A program made the translations under genes and the position numbers. Positions 6,520 through 57,437 of a stretch of DNA of 64,000 nt are shown here, piece by piece. Below the pieces are notes generated by a model. It was not told where the DNA came from, searched no databases, and saw only the letters and a list, made by a program, of their open reading frames with translations. Numbering within the stretch: position 1 is the stretch's first letter; every line of letters starts with the position of its first letter. Source of the stretch: Octopus vulgaris (taxonomy: Eukaryota); NCBI GenBank assembly GCA_951406725.2, contig OX597818.1, positions 146,072,001-146,136,000 on the forward strand, in the 5' to 3' direction.

Positions 6520-6906
6520 GCAGGTGAGGTCCAGTTAGAATTTTCTTTAGGTTGAGTAGCCCATCCCGTTCAAAAAGTCCCTGGATAAGGTTGTTTAAGG
6601 ATGTTGAACGAAACTACCATGTTTCCAGGGGTGAATTATCCAATTTCCCAAGCATTCCTCTCAACACATGACTATGATGCTCCCCCACTACTCCTGCTCA
6701 TGATCAGAGATGCACATATCGTCAGCCACTAAGGGACATGCTCAACTGGTTAAGGTCAAACAACTGACAAACAAATCTGTGGTATTGAGCAGAATATTTG
6801 CTAAAGCCATCTTTTATACCAAGACAAAACAATGTACATGATAACACTTCCAATCAGTTAAGATGAGAAGCCATGAAAGCCACTGTCTGGTACTGCATCT
6901 GGGCAT
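6520..6906 (+). mobile_element. Retroelement 3' end or SINE ending in (ATT)n, unclassified
   Basis: Partial second copy at ~13960-14130 (CTACTCCTGCTCATGATCAGAGATG...GCAGAATATTTGCTA). Confidence 0.65.
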
Positions 6907-6934
6907 TTATTATTATTATTGTTGTTGTTGTTGT

Positions 6935-8048
6935 TATTTACTTTTAATCTGCATATTTGTTACAAACACTCACCCAGACACACCCAGCGTCCTTGGGTGA
7001 GTGAAGGATAAAAGATGTTACAGTATGACTGAAAGCTTGGGAAGGGAAAAAGGCAGGAGCAGTAGCGAAATATCTTCATGTAATACAACACATACATTTA
7101 AATAGATAGGGTTTTTCTAAGAATGTGGACAGTACTTGTCAGCACAATGTTTTGGATTTCTCGGAGACATGGTTCTCCTGGGATATTATCTAGATGTTTC
7201 TGACATCCCTTTCTTATACCAAAGGCACCCACAATAACAGGAACAGTTCTCATTTTAGAATGCCACATCTTTTGTATTTCAATTTCCAAGTCCTTATATT
7301 TACTTAATTTGTCAAATTCCTTTACAGATATATTTTTATCAGTGGGAACACTTACATCTATTAGTCTACGAGTATTTTCTTCTCTGTCTTTAATGATTAT
7401 GTCTGGTCGATTCGCCTGGATCGTTCTGTCGGTGTTGACTGGAAAATCCCAGAGGATAGTGACATGTTTACCTTCAACGACTGGCACAAAACAAGATGTT
7501 CAAGACAGATGAAAAAAAATTTACAGGGAGTTTGGCAAAAGCAAGATAGAAGTAAAGGAAATGGAATAATTCTGGAAGATATGGAGCAACAGAAAAGAAT
7601 ATAATGCTGAAACTCACTAGATAGAACGTAACATGATGAAATGAGATTGGATGAAGTTGAAGAGCAGAAATGTGAGGCAATAGGAGTAGAAAAGCTAAGA
7701 TGTGTTCTTAGAAAGTCTCACAAACGGAAAACCCCAGGACTGGACTGGATCCTTAACTTCTAGCTAAATTGTTTGACAGAAGTACACCAAAATGTTGCTT
7801 CATCTCGAACTGATATAATCTCGAACCCAGAGCAAATACCTGCCTGGCTAACCGACTGAACAACATGCCTTCTACCAAAATCTGAAGACACGAAAAATCC
7901 AAAGAACTACCGCCTTCTCAACGCCATCTACAAGATCCTCACATCGATACTAACTGAAAGGATATACACTTTCCTGGAACAGAACTCTATCCTTCCACAA
8001 GCTCAAAAAAGGTTGTGAAAGGAATTCTTATGGATTCAAAACACAGTT

Positions 8049-47967: not shown

Positions 47968-48094
47968 CATACATACATACATACATACATACATACATAC
48001 ATACATACATACATACACATACATACATACATACATGCTTACATACATACATACGTACATACATACATACATACATACATACATACATACATGC

Positions 48095-48125
<31 letters not shown>

Positions 48126-48358
48126 AACACATACATACATACATACATACATACATACATACATACATACATACATACATACATACATACATACACACAC
48201 ACATACATACATACATACATACATACATACATACATACATACATACATAAACACATACATACATACATACATACATACATACATACATACATACATACAT
48301 ACATACATACATACATACATACATACATACATACATACATACATACATACATACATAC
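47881..48358 (+). repeat. (TACA)n microsatellite
   Basis: Long tetranucleotide array. Confidence 0.98.
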
Positions 48359-48359
48359 A

Positions 48360-48487
48360 AAGGTTTTAGGGTTAGGTTTTTCTTTTGAGATTTTTTAAAA
48401 ATCCCGGTTTACATTGTCTAAAGCTTCATTTCCTTATTTAAGACGATAATGTTTTGAAAGTGATTTAGTTGCTGCTTCTTGCCGATA
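48360..48487. other. Locally templated insertion (17 bp direct plus 111 bp inverted)
   Basis: 48377-48487 is the reverse complement of 44757-44867 (5 mismatches by eye); 48360-48376 equals 45247-45263. Confidence 0.8.
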
Positions 48488-48746
48488 CATACATTTATTA
48501 GTTTGAAGATTATCTCTGTCGCAACTATCGAATGGCAAAAATTGAGGAAAGGACAGTCATAAAACATTAGTTTGTAATCGGGTCATCACGCAGGAAGATA
48601 TTTGCATTGCTTTTAGATTAATTGTTCTCCGAATATTGTGTTGAAATCTGATATGGGCGATCTAGACAATATTGTTGGCCTGGTGTACTAACAAAGAGCT
48701 TATGAAGTATTTTGCCCGGAATGATAATTCCTCAGAAATAACTCCG

Positions 48747-48832
<86 letters not shown>

Positions 48833-49565
48833 GCAAGCATTTTTGAAAAGAGTTAAAAGCAATTGCGAAATTTTCTACGGCAATGGAAACAAGCTAATAG
48901 AAACAAGAATTTTTTTTAAATCAAAGGTTAAAACCTTTAGCTTATATTTCAATGTTTTGGCTATAAAACTACCTTATATTCAATAGAAGTGAATGCGCAT
49001 AGTTATAACCTGCACGAATATGTTAAGTGGGATATTTTGCAACAAGTGTAGACTGGTGCATTTAAATCAGCCAGTTGACGTTGCACAACACTTGACTGAT
49101 TTTCTTGCTGGGTTTTAATCGTTTCACTTCGTTAATTATCTGATATTCAATAATACATTATTGGACTCGATGGCGGCTATCGTGTTTGGTTACGGCAATC
49201 ACGGTCTCCAATAAAACCACTGAGCGGGGTATCGTACTTCAGAGAAGGAAACGCCGGCTTTAATAAAAATGATGCCCATCATCTGCTACATATAAGAGTT
49301 ACTCGATGTTAATCAGATAAATTAACACCATCTGCTCATTTGGCAATTCCTCCTTACTGTATTCATCTGCGTAGGCCAACACTTTCCTAACTCTTGTCTC
49401 ACTCCGATACGGGCATTTTATCGCCGAAATATTGAATAAATGAATACAGAAAATATTGATTTTTTTCTCTCTTTTTGTATTTAAATCTCTGATTTATTTC
49501 CAGTTTGCATTGCCATAGCTTTCTTTCATCAGCTACAAACGCATATTACACAAATACATCCACAT

Positions 49566-49607
<42 letters not shown>

Positions 49608-49662
49608 TCTCTCTATCTCTTTCTCATACGCACAAATGTTAATATAATATGCATGCATATCT

Positions 49663-49759
<97 letters not shown>

Positions 49760-49781
49760 GTATGTATATAAAATTAATACA

Positions 49782-49943
49782 GGCGCAGGAGTGGCTGTGT
49801 TGTAAGAAGCTTGCTTACCAACCACACCGTTTCGGGTTCGACCCCACTGCGCGGACTTTGGGCGAGTGTCTTCTACTATAGCCTCGGGCCGACCAAATCC
49901 TTGTGAGTGAATTTGGTAGACAGAAACTGAAAGAAGCCCATCG

Positions 49944-50001
<58 letters not shown>

Positions 50002-50212
50002 TTATTTGTATCTGTGTTTGTCCCCCCACCATCACTTGACAACCGATCTTGTTGTGTTCACGTCCACATAACTTACCAGTTCGGCAAAAGAGAACGATAG
50101 AATAAGTACTAGGTTTACAAAAAACAAGTCCTGGGGTCGATTTGTTCGACTAAAGGTGATGCTCTATCAAGGCCGCAGTCAAATGACTGAAACAAGTAAA
50201 AGAATAAAAGAA
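49782..50212 (+). mobile_element. SINE family B, full length
   Basis: GGCGCAGGAGTGGCTGTG head, GGTTCGACCCC B-box, GTAAAAGAATAAAAG tail. Confidence 0.92.
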
Positions 50213-50390
50213 TATAAACAGCAGTTTCACCAAAAAGGAGAATTATAATTGTCACTAAATGCGACTAGTGTGTTAGAAAACATTTACTAGAAATAAAAGC
50301 TAAAACACTCTAATGCTGTAGTCAACGCGCATGACTGAGAACAAACCCTTACAGGGACCATAATTGTCTGAAAAATGCCGCTCGAGAATT

Positions 50391-50439
50391 CTTAATACCG
50401 ACGTCAGTTTCGGCAATTTCCGTTGCCTCATCAGTTAAG
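50391..50439 (-). ncRNA. Canonical type I hammerhead ribozyme (variant G), antisense to the HERO ORF
   Basis: Minus CTTAA-CTGATGA-GGCAAC-GGAA-ATTGCC-GAAA-CTG-ACGT-CGG-TA-TTAAG; all core nt canonical, three stems, palindromic ACGT loop III, GUA site. Confidence 0.9.
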
Positions 50440-50503
50440 CCTGCCCGATTGTTCGGCTTTTCCTGATGTTTTCGTCATCCAAATTATTGGATGATTTAGC
50501 GAT

Positions 50504-53500
50504 ATGCTAAAAAGGAATGGACCCGAACCGGAAATGGACAATGAGAAAAGAAGCGGTAAAGGAAAAGTAGATGAGGAATTCAGCTGCTGTGGAAAGGTGT
50601 TTTCTAGTTACATCGGGCTTAGAATTCACCAAGGGAAGGTGTATCAGAAGAAAGTGATTCAACAGCGCGGGTTGAAAAACCAAAAGACGTGTCGCCAGAA
50701 CCTCCTGGAAATAAACCATAGCGAGAGTCATTCCATAGTTGAATCGGAAAAGCCAAGAAAAGAGAAAGGCGTGAAGAAGCCAAAGATTAAGTAGCCGAAG
50801 GCAAATGTTGCAGCTAGCTATAAGGAATTCGACAACGAATTTCTTATAAATTCAAAAGGGGCGATGAACAAAAGCTCGAAAACTTGGCTAATATAATCTC
50901 TCAGGAAGGAGAGAAAAGATTTGGACTTGAAACAACAAGGAATGGAGAATCATCGGCAACGGGGGAACCATCGAGAAGAGAAAGATGGATCGCAAAGATA
51001 CGTGAAGAGAACAAAAAACTCAGAACCAGATGGAGGGATGCAAAAGAAGAGGAAAGCGAAGGGTTAAAACAATTATATGAAGAGATAAAAAAGGGGCATC
51101 GAGAACAACTAAGAAAGAAATGAAATAAGAACAGAAGAAAGGAGAGAGAAAAGAACTATCGTAGTTTTGTAAACAACCCATATCAATATGCTAAACATTT
51201 GTTTACTGAAAGTAAGAGCGGAAGATTGGATTGCACTAAAAAAGAGCTCGAACACGATCTTAAAAGGACGTACAGCGACGCTGATAGAAATAAAGTACTC
51301 CTAGAAATGCTCGGGCTGAAGAAACCACCTGAACCAAGTGTACCATTCGATTTGAGTGTCATCGGACGGAAAGAAATGGATGAGTTCATTAGAAAAGCAA
51401 GAGCAAAAAGTTCACAAAGGAACGACGGAGTTAGCTACAAGATTTATAAATATTACTCGAAATTGCGTTTATAACTATTTACATTAAGAGAAATGTGGAA
51501 GAAAAAAGACGTAGCAGAACGATGTTGTATAGCTCTCTAAAGAGAGGGAAGCAAAAACACTAGGACAATTCAGACCCATATCACTGCTAAATATCGATGT
51601 TTGTCAAGTGAATCATAAGATTCGTACAGCATAACGGATATGTTAATGAAGCAATCCAGAAGCCAGGGATCCCTGGAATCCCTGGATACATAGAACATGC
51701 ATTTGCCATCTGGGAAGCTATCAACGGTGCAAAACAACTGAAAAATACTGTACATTGTATGGCTAGATCTTGCCAGTGCTTATGGATCTGTTCCACACGC
51801 ACTAATTCAAGCAGCTATGGATCTCTTTTGGGCTCCAGAAGATATTCAACGAATGCTCATGTGTTGCTCCGATAAACTGAAGAGGAGATTTACAGCAGGA
51901 AATTTCTCAACGGTGTGGCAACAGTTTGAAGTAGTTATTGCAGCTGGATGCACGATATCAGTCATCTTATTTGTGCTAGTCATGGAAATGTTACTAAGAT
52001 CAACAAACTGTGAGAAATATATTACAAAGACACCATTAAGGGCTTTTATGGACGACGTTACGGTATTACCAGAAAGTAGAGAAGCAGCAGATGCAACGTT
52101 AGAACGGTTGGACGAACTAACAGGATGGATGAGAATGAAATTCAAGCCAAAAAATCTCGAAGCGTGGCTTTCATGAAGAGTCCAAAAAGAAGTGAAATGC
52201 AGGATATGAGGTGAAGATAGACCAACGGTGAAAGAACAACCAGTAAAAAGTCTCTGCAGATGGTACAGAGATTTATTAAATGATAAGAAGCAAAGCAAAG
52301 AAACACAAGATTTAGTGGAAAAGGGACTAAAGGCAATCGACAGAACAACATTATCGGGGAAATTCGAATGCTGGATATTGCAACTTGGATTGTACCCAAG
52401 GATAATGTGGTTATTGCCAATGTACGAAATAGCCTCGAGCAGAGTAGAAAGGATGGAACGAAGATAGAGTGTGTTTATCAGAAAATGGCTTGATATTCCA
52501 AAACCACTGAATACAACTGACTATATGGAAAACGCGTGCTGCAACTACCGGTAACATCAATCGCCGAAGAATATAAGGCAGGGAATGCAAGGAGAGTAAT
52601 ATTGCTGAGGTATTCGAAAGATCAGAACAACCAAGAAAATCCTCCAAAGGTACGAACAGGGAGTAAATTGAAAATGGAAGAGGTAGTAAACAAGGGGATC
52701 GGAAAACTAAGGTATGCCGATATAATCGGAGCGACGCAAGAAGCAAGAGCTGGTCTAGGGTTGCATAATTTCAAGCCATTTTGCATGAACAGTGTAAAGG
52801 AGATGAAAAAGGCAGTGGTACTCGAAGTGAGATAGAAGAAAGGCGAAATATACATTTGGTGCAATGTAGCCAACAGGGACAGTGCTTGAGATGGGAAGAA
52901 TATGTGGTCAGTCGCAGAATCTCATGGAAGGAACTTTGGGTCTGGGAACAAGCAAGAACATCCTTTCTGATCAAGTCTACCTTCGACGTTTTACCTTCAC
53001 CGGCCAATTTTGTTCGGTGGTACATACAAACAGCTGATGAATGTAGATGCGAAGAAAAAGCGACGTTGAAACATGTTCTGTCAAACTGCAGGCTATCACG
53101 AGACAGATGTACATGGCCTCACAATCAAGTCCTCGGTGTCATAAGATTGAGGGATGTTATAGGGGAGAATACCCAAAAGTGGAAAAGCGCGGATAGATAT
53201 AGTTCCAGAAGAAGGGAAAAGGACATAAGGCCAAGCCTTCCAATAACGTATACGAGACAAACGAAAGAAGGAAGAGAGATTGGGAGCTGACCACGTGTTT
53301 GGAGAGACTGTGAATATTTCCATTCATAAAAGCAACAAAAAGACCGGACTTAATCCTATGGAACACAGAATGGAGAATTGGAATTTTGCTAGAGCTGACA
53401 GTGCCATGGGAAGAGAACATCGCTAATGCAGAGCAACGGAAGAAGAGGCATGAAAAATTAATCGAAGAGTGCAGAGAACAGGGATGGGGCTTCATTGAAA

Positions 53501-53619
53501 GGAAAATGGAGACGTTATTTAAAAGAAGGTTTGCATTTTCGAACTCAGAACTGAGAAAAGTAATAAGGAGAGTACAGGAGGCAGTCGACAAAGCTAGCTT
53601 CTATATATGGCTGAAATGA
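50504..53619 (+). pseudogene. HERO polyprotein (ZnF-RT-CCHC-RLE) with frameshifts and stops
   Basis: CCGKVFSSYIGLRIHQ; LDLASAYGSVPH; IAAGCTISVILF; AFMDDVT; CRCEEKATLKHVLSNC..TWPHNQVL; RPDLILW..LELTVPWEEN. Confidence 0.92.
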
Positions 53620-53884
53620 GAAGACCAAAAATGGCTTGAAAGCCGTAACATGCCGACTGGGAAATAGCATCGCTAGGTGGGGCTGGCTGACACTTAAACA
53701 GCATCGCTGATTGACTGGTAGGCCAAGGTAGTGATCTCATTCATAGCACACCCTCCTCCTGGTTCGAAGGCTTGTACCACCAAACAGCTAATTGGCTCTG
53801 GCTGCTGGAACTGAAACTAACACGACACTGTTAGAAGGCAGGTTTAGAGAGGACGCGGGCCAAAACTACGCACCCTTCCCCTCC

Positions 53885-53985
53885 ATTGGTCACTTGAAGC
53901 TTAGACAGTGTCACGTGACAGTTGGCGCTGGCTGCTGGAGCCTACCGGCGAGTATTTAAAAGAAAATTTGGCAGGATGGTCATTC
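53885..53985 (+). promoter_or_regulatory. Pol II-like core promoter in the HERO 3' region
   Basis: ATTGG 53885; palindromic E-box TGTCACGTGACA 53909-53920; TATTTAAA 53953-53960; Inr TCATTC 53980-53985 (A+1 at 53982, TATA at -29); AATAAA 54015. Confidence 0.6.
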
Positions 53986-54330
53986 GCCCGCTGACATTCG
54001 TTGAAGCTGCATCGAATAAACCAAAGAACAAAAGAAAAACGGAGAAAGTAAAAACGCACTCAACACCAGAGCTGAAGACACCTCCAAAAGTGGGAGCTCC
54101 GCCACGTTGGAAACGGTAGAAGTGTAGGGCCTGAAACCGGACGAGATTCCCCCCGATGATGTCTTTAGCCATTGGATCCTATAAAGGAACTGTTGAGGTA
54201 GCGAACCACGAAAGGTGGTTGGAATTCCTATGTTTTCGTCATCCAAAATTATTGGACGATTTTCCGATACGCTGCGTAAAATACAAAATTAATATAAGCA
54301 GCAGTTTGCAATGTTTCACACGCACGCACG

Positions 54331-54390
<60 letters not shown>

Positions 54391-54629
54391 TACGTGCACT
54401 TATTTAAGGATGATTGTATGCGTAGATGTTCAACCGGGATTAACGTTTCAGTCAAGATGAACAAAGTAATTCGTGTTCTTTAGTGATGTTTAGAAACTCA
54501 TTTGTTTCCTTTGTTTTTCTTGCCATGTCAATATACATACACATACCATACCATACGTTAATTTCATGCGCAGGCTGGTCCGTTGATCGTATCAGCGGGG
54601 ACCTTCGTCGTCGTAACCGACGGAGTGCT

Positions 54630-54663
<34 letters not shown>

Positions 54664-54751
54664 ATATGATATTATATATAGTATTATATGTTATGTCATA
54701 TGTATATCATATTATTTATTATCAAACATTATATATATATATGTATATATA

Positions 54752-55061
54752 TATCACGTGATCACGTGACCGACCAGACCATCAGATGTTGTTACACATC
54801 GCTGGTCACAATGCATTCGCATTGTTTTATCCTTCGAACGACGCCACCCCGCTGGCTAAGCGAGCAGGCCAACAGAAGAAAGAGTGGGAGAAAGTTGTGG
54901 TGAAAGAGTACAGCAGGGATCACCACCACCCCCTGCCGGAGTTTCGTGGAGCTTTTAGGTGTTTTCGCTCAAAAAACACTCACAACGCCCGGCCAGAGAA
55001 TCGAAACCGCGATCCTACGACCGCGAGTCCGCTGCCCTAACCACTGGGCCATTGCGCCTCC
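54752..55061 (-). mobile_element. SINE family C, tail type 1, full length
   Basis: GGAGGCGCAATGGCCCAGTGGTTAGGGCAGCGGACTCGCGG head; CACGTGATCACGTGA end. Confidence 0.93.
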
Positions 55062-55289
55062 ATGTGTGTGTGTATATATATATTATTTCTACATATATGT
55101 GTGCGTTTGTATGAATGTATTTATAAACACACATGTATGCAGCATTCATATGTGTGTACACACCACACACACACATATATTTATAAAGAAGTATATTTAT
55201 ATATGTATATGTTTATGGATATACATGTATATTGATATGTATGTATATATGTATATACATATATGCATGCATATATGTGTATATATATA

Positions 55290-55354
<65 letters not shown>

Positions 55355-56073
55355 ATATTAATGCGTAGAAACATGCATACATGCTTACAAACATAGATAC
55401 ATATACACATACATATACACATTCATGCATGCATACATACATACATATTCATGCATGCAAATGTGCGTGCACATATTGTGCTTTTTACAGCTGTAGCCAC
55501 GATTATTCATTGAGCGTTGACAACGCATCAACGCGAACATTAAGTTTGCCTACGTCAGTAAATCTTCATGGAAATAAGAAGAGAATCTAATTAGAACGGT
55601 GTAAAGCTTTGTAAGGTTGGTGTTTCTTAGCCGTTAGGAAAATAGTTGGAGAAAGAATCATAATAGCTATAGACATTTGCATATTTTGAGATATTCCTCA
55701 AGCACACACACGAAAGAAAAGAAGTGAGAGAGGGGGAGAAGTAGAGGAGAGAGTGAGAGTGGGGAAGAGGGAAGATAGCCACAGAAATGTGAGTATACAT
55801 GAAAAAGAGAATTGTTAGTACTTGTCAGTCGATGTCTGAGAAAGAGACACTAGGATGCAGCCATAACAATACAACATAGAATGGGTGATGATGTGGATAG
55901 GAGTGTGGGTTAGGTGTAATGGCGGTGGTTGCGGTGGTGGCCGTGGTGTAGTGGTGTAGGTGGTAATAGCGGTGGTGGTGTTTTGTGGTGGTTTCAGGCG
56001 TGATGTTGATGTTAGTCTCTTCTGACTCTTAAATGGCTACTTTGTTCTTGTTTCTATCTGTACCATTATTTCC

Positions 56074-56145
<72 letters not shown>

Positions 56146-56238
56146 GTCTATCTATTCGCATGTTCTTCACTTCTGTAGTTTTTTCGATTGTTTTAGTTGT
56201 CACGACTAAGGTCATGTTAAAGTACAACCTTGTATACA

Positions 56239-56875
<637 letters not shown>

Positions 56876-57437
56876 GTGTCTCTGAGAACTCTTGAATAAT
56901 TAAACTGGTTACGGTAACTACGTCGATATGCTTTTTACTATGGTTCTGTCGCAGCTTAACAGACCTCCAAGAGTGAATGCATCTATGTGTGAGATGGTCC
57001 TTCATATGTTCTGCATCTGGGAGACTACTTGTGTGTTTAGTAGCCAGTGCAGCTGAAGTGTCAGTCTGCTGTTGTTTGCTCTAACCGGACACGTTCAGCA
57101 GCAGCAGCAGCAGCAGTAGCAGCAGCAGCAACACTTGTAGTAGTTGTTGCCATTTAGCATCAGGTCGTCTCTGATGGCAAAAGACTTTCCATTTGTGACC
57201 ATCTTGTTTTCTTGTATATCAAGGAGGACTACGTTGTCCAATGTATACTTTCTCAAGACAGTACTTCGTGATTTAAGGGAGATTTGGTTGCGTTTTCTAA
57301 CCAGTCAAGCTACCACTTAATGGCGTTTCTCTTTCACTTGTGGTGGTCGTGGCGAAGGCGTTGTCTTTACAATATTGGTGGTTGTGGGAGCGGGTGTGGT
57401 AGAGATGGTGTCGGTGCTAATAGTAATAATTATTTCA

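Follow-up and report, generated by a model that had tools for sequence, protein, structure and literature searches.

Background

HERO is one of the five clades of long interspersed nuclear elements (LINEs) that carry a restriction-like endonuclease (RLE). Here, we describe a decayed HERO copy in a stretch of 64,000 nucleotides of the Octopus vulgaris genome (GCA_951406725.2, contig OX597818.1, positions 146,072,001 to 146,136,000 of the forward strand; hereafter, the window), together with its relatives in the same genome and in a metagenomic set. These elements carry a hammerhead-like motif in their 3' untranslated region (3' UTR), with a wiring that is apparently undescribed. We propose, with a probability of about 0.6, that this rewired hammerhead would cut read-through transcripts of partial-tandem HERO copies into unit-length RNAs, which would then be circularised and reverse-transcribed.

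The window element belongs to a family that we call A, and its closest named relative is a Tetraodon polyprotein (AAN12398.1, 41% identity over 613 aa). We take AAN12398.1 to be Zebulon and BAC82599.1 to be HEROTn, elements that are said to have been treated by Bouneau et al. in 2003 and by Kojima and Fujiwara in 2004. Zebulon/HEROTn and family A share a reverse transcriptase (RT) with a C-terminal RLE, and a promoter-like 3' extension is extra in family A. To our knowledge, the Zebulon/HEROTn papers propose no ribozyme or circular-RNA mechanism.

Two other groups of retroelements rely on ribozymes. Penelope-like elements (PLEs), as described in excerpts of PMC7229834 and PMC6765202, resemble HERO in having partial tandems whose repeated end contains a hammerhead, in lacking a tail and in a proposed circular intermediate. 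They differ from it in having GIY-YIG instead of RLE, and a type I hammerhead instead of a non-circularly permuted one. R2 and other LINEs with 5' ribozymes of the hepatitis delta virus (HDV) type free their RNA from a longer transcript by self-cleavage (excerpts of PMC6765202, PMC13580325 and PMC13708176), as HERO, an RLE LINE too, would do. In HERO, by contrast, the putative ribozyme is of the hammerhead type, is located within the 3' UTR some 110-120 nt before the insertion end, and would be needed in two tandem copies; moreover, insertion is not site-specific. HERO targets were reported as mostly non-specific, with some microsatellite bias (PMC4640811). In our data the flanks of the copies differ, and 11 of 61 inserts of a second octopus family (family B) have a microsatellite on both sides.

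At the RNA level, the type-SGC hammerheads (HRIMA-1 and variants) share with the HERO motif the S-G-C block order with stems I and III, a short linker between stems I and II, a helix joining the far sides of these stems, and all core letters. According to the portions consulted of Eckert et al. 2023 (PMC10085705), type-SGC hammerheads were shown to cleave, their A9-G10.1 chain is taken as uninterrupted, and no SGC RNAs were found in genomes of known organisms. The HERO motif, by contrast, sits in a genomic retrotransposon, has the 5' strand of stem II and an interaction strand upstream of block S, is open in its chain between A9 and G10.1, and bears a k-turn or a one-sided bulge at stem III. 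Because stem II does not directly follow CUGAnGA, the motif is, judged from its letters and helices, a further hammerhead permutation and not a type-SGC member. The main text of PMC10085705 contains neither 'HERO' nor 'reverse transcriptase', and a search of its supplement gave no link to retrotransposons. No paper linking HERO to a hammerhead was found in the literature searched, a description in Repbase Reports or subscription journals being possible, and the word 'hammerhead' is absent from the parts consulted of two 2026 reviews.

A rewired hammerhead-like motif

Family B is a second, young family in the same genome, with intact open reading frames (ORFs) and 55% protein identity to family A. 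Its monomer measures 3737-3738 nt, and its 3' UTR, of 196 nt and without the promoter extension, has 482 exact matches in the genome. In both families the motif runs from an outer helix strand through a hairpin, strand b, strand c, a bulge and a stem III strand to NUH, and then through a stem I strand, a short linker, b', GAAA, stem III, c', stem I and CUGANGA to the other outer helix strand. The core thus lies on the sense strand in S-G-C order, with the 5' strand of stem II coming from upstream. In the window copy the motif is decayed (U4 and C11.1 are changed); GAAA stands at 54133-54136, the position of CUGAUGA is 54153-54159, and the predicted cut falls after 54118.

The motif recurs in 76 metagenomic HERO loci (283,731 nt, drawn from the best 80 of 567 relatives), where a strict pattern gave 34 sense matches, none in antisense and 0-1 per shuffle. 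A relaxed pattern, counted in those 41 loci whose sequence continues for at least 200 nt past the ORF, was present in 36, not all of them independent, and the motifs comprised 30 distinct ones at <85% similarity. Loci with the motif occur in both main branches of a quick protein tree without outgroup, including next to the Tetraodon element. We also searched for the helices and their spacing with no core letters, within 330 nt of the ORF end. This helix-only search gave 24 top matches with a score of at least 13, and 22 of them had GAAA, NUH, and CUGANGA or UUGACAA; the antisense strand gave seven top matches, none with the core (0/7), and the remaining 17 loci scored lower or gave no match in that range.

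In the core, N7 takes all four letters, and H17 is U, C or A, never G. Two loci (L128 and L130) read UUGACAA, a double change to U3:A8, which is a swap of the hammerhead C3:G8 pair. The upstream strand gives G10.1-C11.1 as G-C in 30 of 31 motifs, and 19 of 21 non-consensus stem II strands have their own complement. The c/c' interaction helix reaches -11.6 kcal/mol (-9.0 for the best of 5000 permutations). A pattern taken from the k-turn consensus lies between stem III and c/c' in 16/31 motifs (3% by chance). In most of the remaining motifs there is a one-sided bulge instead, and both forms would give the bend needed for a single-molecule fold. No base takes part in two helices in family B. We consider it quite probable that the motif is catalytically active.

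Several points weigh against this view. The relaxed pattern arises by chance 1-5 times per shuffle of the whole set, 5 of the 41 loci have no motif (their contigs may end too early), and the spacing windows of the helix-only search were derived from known matches. Stems I and III do exchange pair types across the 30 distinct motifs, in favour of these helices, but the counts ignore kinship among loci. In the canonical register of stem II, the bases after A9 pair with those before G12 in 0/31 motifs, and the core could be inactive or slow, since stem II is not directly after A9.

The absence of a canonical stem II would also suit a hammerhead-derived, non-catalytic dock that places the HERO protein and defines where RT begins; the tandems would then arise via template jumps or from source loci that are tandem themselves. 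No strong stop is seen as RT passes the site, as a dock would allow, and R2 3' UTR structures bind protein (excerpts of PMC6765202). Such a dock is nonetheless improbable: no catalytic letter is lost, N7 and H17 vary just as an active core would permit, the U3:A8 change is double, the upstream strand restores G10.1-C11.1, and the economy of bases in the family B helices points the same way.

Rfam assigned no ribozyme family to either HERO junction region, and its scan of window positions 48000-57000 returned microsatellite noise only. LINE-borne ribozymes may be undercounted, because standard searches miss the motif (no Rfam hammerhead match). Two other candidates were rejected. Inspection by eye gave no structure that would fit a cut, HDV-like or hammerhead, right at the head-to-tail junction of tandem copies. 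A hammerhead read from CTGTTGAG at 54186 has a wrong A6 across the family and a broken hairpin in subfamily A2.

Partial tandems and how they may arise

HERO has a real pseudo-LTR-like (LTR, long terminal repeat) head-to-tail organisation. In 13 of 29 family A 5' loci, a 205-bp 5' segment follows part of the element's own 3' end; the junction between them is always the same, and the length of the 3' part varies. Likewise, 14 of 30 family B loci (chosen by their 5' stretch) cross the head-to-tail junction, and 0 of the 16 others stop within 45 nt of it. Terminal repeats of 96-1682 bp, 98.8-99.8% identical, were present in 7/20 family B loci. The sequence-only reading of the window had already suggested a pseudo-LTR-like organisation and rightly so, except that it is built from other sequences than those named there; the window copy itself lacks both the 205-bp segment and the repeat of its 3' end that would precede it. 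Partial tandems were probably already published for Zebulon, reportedly by Bouneau et al. in 2003 for Tetraodon. Family B loci L180-L199 have intact frames of 1100-1180 aa, those of L180 and L190 being open immediately past the junction.

The predicted cut lies 111 nt (family A) or 122 nt (family B) inside the 3' end of the insertion and therefore does not make that end. RT crosses the site freely: among 71 family B copies taken by their 3' ends, 68 extend upstream of the predicted cut, one begins at it and two begin downstream. The 3' ends reach a variable 0-9 letters into downstream element sequence, and thus the template continues beyond the 'end'. Besides, the terminal repeats must be rebuilt somehow, because 5' truncation can only shorten them. 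Regular target-site duplications (TSDs) are rare: the 61 family B inserts include a single clear non-microsatellite case, of 25 bp, and family A gave one of 15 bp.

In the proposed cycle, a copy would carry two ribozymes if the upstream repeat of its 3' end is long enough. Its transcript would come from read-through or, in family A, from the promoter-like module that lies shortly before the ribozyme. Cutting at both sites would release one monomer (3737-3738 nt in family B), whose ends, kept together by the ribozyme fold, would be ligated. Target-primed reverse transcription (TPRT) would start 110-120 nt downstream of the cut, at a point set by the protein and with a few bases of target microhomology, and would pass the cut and the junction for more than one round, rebuilding the partial tandem.

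A ligated circle explains the 3' ends, the passage of RT and the tandem data, and we put a covalent circle as the template at somewhat better than even. For the whole combination, namely a clade-wide four-block hammerhead (stem II strand, S, G and C, with a k-turn bend), monomers cut from partial tandems, and TPRT rolling round a circle from an internal start, we see the odds as balanced. Run X1 contained a closed contig of 1254 nt, at depth 76, that represents a deleted family B monomer (matching L180:1765-3018) and is a weak hint of a circle. Run contigs cannot show ends or strand.

Other observations speak against the circle or the cycle as a whole. The X1 contig could instead be DNA or the transcript of a tandem array, its RNA status being a guess (a run search with family B listed no RNA run as a holder), and its junction was not among 30 loci of its own genome. 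The lack of a pile-up at the cut fits uncut RNA equally well as ligated RNA. Three family A loci, two of them with a shared flank, stop 4-9 nt from the junction. One locus (L134, 85-7266) holds two HERO copies, 68% identical, head to tail and each with its own motif variant; such a pair cannot come from one circle and points to jumps or misassembly.

This pair of families would suit an active hammerhead that acts with no covalent circle. The monomer could be closed by base pairing, or the cut could serve 5' processing or cap-independent translation, RT crossing the nick or joining RNAs by end-to-end template jumping. Template jumping by the R2 RT is known, and one family B copy begins exactly at the predicted cut. 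Self-cleavage by itself can promote cap-independent translation, according to excerpts of PMC13725137. We regard a cycle with no covalent circle as rather unlikely, with just 1/71 copies stopping at the cut, no recurring insertion across it (point changes, with single-base shifts in a few copies) and the closed contig as a weak hint to the contrary.

If the cutting of tandem transcripts and the copying of circles hold true, they would provide a mechanism for the tail-less, partial-tandem structure of HERO/Zebulon LINEs, and the clade-wide hammerhead-like motif would explain their pseudo-LTR-like organisation. As a LINE, HERO would then follow a retrozyme/Penelope-like life cycle, and TPRT could start inside a continuous template. 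Moreover, hammerhead permutations would extend past the three-block rule, and a non-circularly permuted ribozyme would gain a defined genomic host.

The promoter-like module and other conserved parts

The sequence-only reading had noted promoter-like words after the ORF, and they are present and common to family A: ATTGG at 53885, GTCACGTGAC at 53910, TATTTAAA at 53953 and TCATTC at 53980. Most family A copies have the module (13-18 of 19 for each word), and the E-box, TATA and Inr-like words are kept between subfamilies A1 and A2. In dead family A copies, these words show a consensus and are not evidence of function. A transcription start at the putative site 53982 was tried and rejected: no 5' ends pile up there, and ends are scattered from 53143 to 54215.

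A second TATAAA word at 54180, in a small hairpin 49 bp before the HERO 3' end, is kept in both subfamilies. Long 3' UTRs (0.7-1.6 kb) precede the motif in L113, L114, L148 and L167, like the promoter-bearing extension of family A.

Just past the head-to-tail junction lies a hairpin array with GAAAGA-type loops and GACA spacers, conserved across distant HERO families (L047/L099 1514-1640 in the family A 5' segment, L180 2191-2320 in family B, and L108, L119, L126 and L163). This array is a candidate protein-binding element or one resembling an internal ribosome entry site.

Internally deleted HERO derivatives keep the 3' UTR motif, the junction and the 5' segment, are often partial tandems, and resemble SIDE-like non-autonomous elements (L045, L046, L048, L053, L066, L068, L092, L094, L101, L200, L262 and L282). 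A deletion junction shared by both repeats in L046 and L048 was considered as proof of a circle; this argument is weakened, as deleted derivatives also spread as subfamilies (L200, L262).

A HERO copy nested in a hammerhead repeat

The locus in the window is a 5'-truncated HERO LINE nested in an unrelated hammerhead repeat of about 355 bp (Table 1).

Table 1. Features of the nested locus, in window positions.
Feature	Positions	Strand	Remarks
Left part of the ~355-bp non-coding type I hammerhead repeat	50211..50509	-	HERO's target; non-LTR-retrozyme-like
Terminal redundancy of the hammerhead repeat, first 17-mer	50211-50227		Within the - strand repeat
Type I hammerhead of the host repeat	50391..50439	-	Palindromic stem III; predicted GUA cut between 50396 and 50395
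Left copy of the ~45-bp target duplication	50466..50509	no strand	From HERO insertion
Decayed HERO-type RLE LINE, family A	50509..54229	+	5'-truncated; fixed tail-less 3' end at 54229
Broken ORF	50531..53643	+	N-terminal zinc-finger-like motif, RT, CCHC knuckle, restriction-like endonuclease motifs
RT domain PF00078	51742-52173	+	In the broken HERO ORF
RNA polymerase II promoter-like module	53885..53985	+	Predicted; CCAAT, E-box, TATA, Inr; family A 3' UTR
HERO's own rewired hammerhead-like motif	54071..54169	+	Decayed in the window copy
Right part of the hammerhead repeat	54230..54319	-	Has a target duplication copy at its start
Second copy of the target duplication	54230-54277		Within the - strand repeat
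Second 17-mer	54291-54307		Within the - strand repeat

The 5' module is a repeat in its own right and is abundant, with 1631 first-look candidates, of which 40 were scored. In 13 of 19 other repeat loci, the sequence continues without a break from the position matching 50510 into 54274-54319 and so spans HERO's site, and the HERO ORF was found in 0/19. Conversely, the hammerhead repeat was found at the element end in 0/29 other HERO 5' loci and 0/19 other HERO 3' loci, and in all 19 of the latter the match to the window ends at about 54229. Because the repeat runs uninterrupted elsewhere and HERO copies elsewhere are free of it, we conclude that HERO inserted into the hammerhead repeat, duplicating about 45 bp, in an orientation opposite to that of its host. 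On the right side, the homology to the host repeat extends to 54319, past the second 17-mer.

The sequence-only reading had taken the locus as a single 4.06-kb unit bounded by a 17-bp TSD, possibly a PLE/HERO chimera, with the antisense hammerhead and the hairpin repeats as its own parts. All these features do lie within the 17-mers at this one locus. The modules never occur together in the 19 repeat, 29 HERO 5' and 19 HERO 3' loci, the repeat is uninterrupted in 13 of the 19, and we find a chimera hardly credible. By the nesting, the antisense hammerhead, the hairpin repeat and the 17-mers are not parts of HERO, and what looked like a chimera is a nested insertion only. That reading had itself named copies lacking the 5' and 3' modules, as nested unrelated insertions, as the finding that would refute it, and this outcome is what the loci show.

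The individual observations of that reading were largely accurate. The antisense type I hammerhead is present, and there is no poly(A), the fixed tail-less 3' end belonging to the HERO family. Its two 17-mers exist with one mismatch; they are not a TSD, being the repeated end of the ~355-bp unit that is present in other copies. The repeat of about 48 bp with a hairpin is also there (45-48 bp, 88% identical between copies), as host DNA duplicated by HERO insertion and not as a terminal repeat of the element. The 'first ATG' (50504) falls inside this duplicated host repeat and outside HERO. Of the parts whose place in a family consensus it had asked about, the 3' promoter-like module is shared among HERO copies, and the antisense hammerhead and hairpin repeats are not HERO's.

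As for the duplication, 23 bp of host repeat present in other repeat copies are absent directly left of its left copy, and TTCCT precedes both copies. A deletion with a microhomology-templated copy appears as likely as a plain TSD.

Coding region and clade

The window ORF is decayed, with 16 stops over six tblastn segments in three frames. The element fits the HERO clade by its predicted products: a single ORF with RT, a CCHC knuckle and a C-terminal RLE, the latter recognised by its motifs and without a Pfam match in the ORF. Family A scored at most 48 bits against R2 and L1 chains and structures. No GIY-YIG match was found in the HERO ORF pieces or their relatives.

The host hammerhead repeat

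The host hammerhead reads, on the - strand, CUUAA-CUGAUGA-GGCAA/UUGCC-GAAA-palindromic stem III-GUA/UUAAG, and Rfam gave it a sub-threshold Hammerhead_3 match only (18.8 bits; gathering score 48.5). The repeat period was 354-358 bp in 8/9 loci tested and 344 in one, and the repeat was seen as partial tandems and fragments. A type I hammerhead in a non-coding, low-GC unit of about 300 bp is also how excerpts of PMC7229834 and bioRxiv 10.64898/2026.07.22.740005 describe non-LTR retrozymes. The host repeat has these features and matches that description, which makes it a probable non-LTR-retrozyme-like repeat.

A parent PLE of the host repeat was not found, 0/30 loci of one GIY-YIG PLE family having a match alongside; a GIY-YIG fragment lay about 900 bp away at 1/19 host-repeat loci. 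At 6553-6975 (-), L082 carries a piece of a Penelope-type GIY-YIG family that is abundant (at least 151 matches) and whose 30 loci contain a single hammerhead-like string.

Finally, an abundant repeat resembling a short interspersed nuclear element (SINE), at window positions 50007-50214, ends exactly at the start of the hammerhead repeat, and the same junction recurs in L003 and L017. This could reflect a target preference for the SINE tail, or a search bias.

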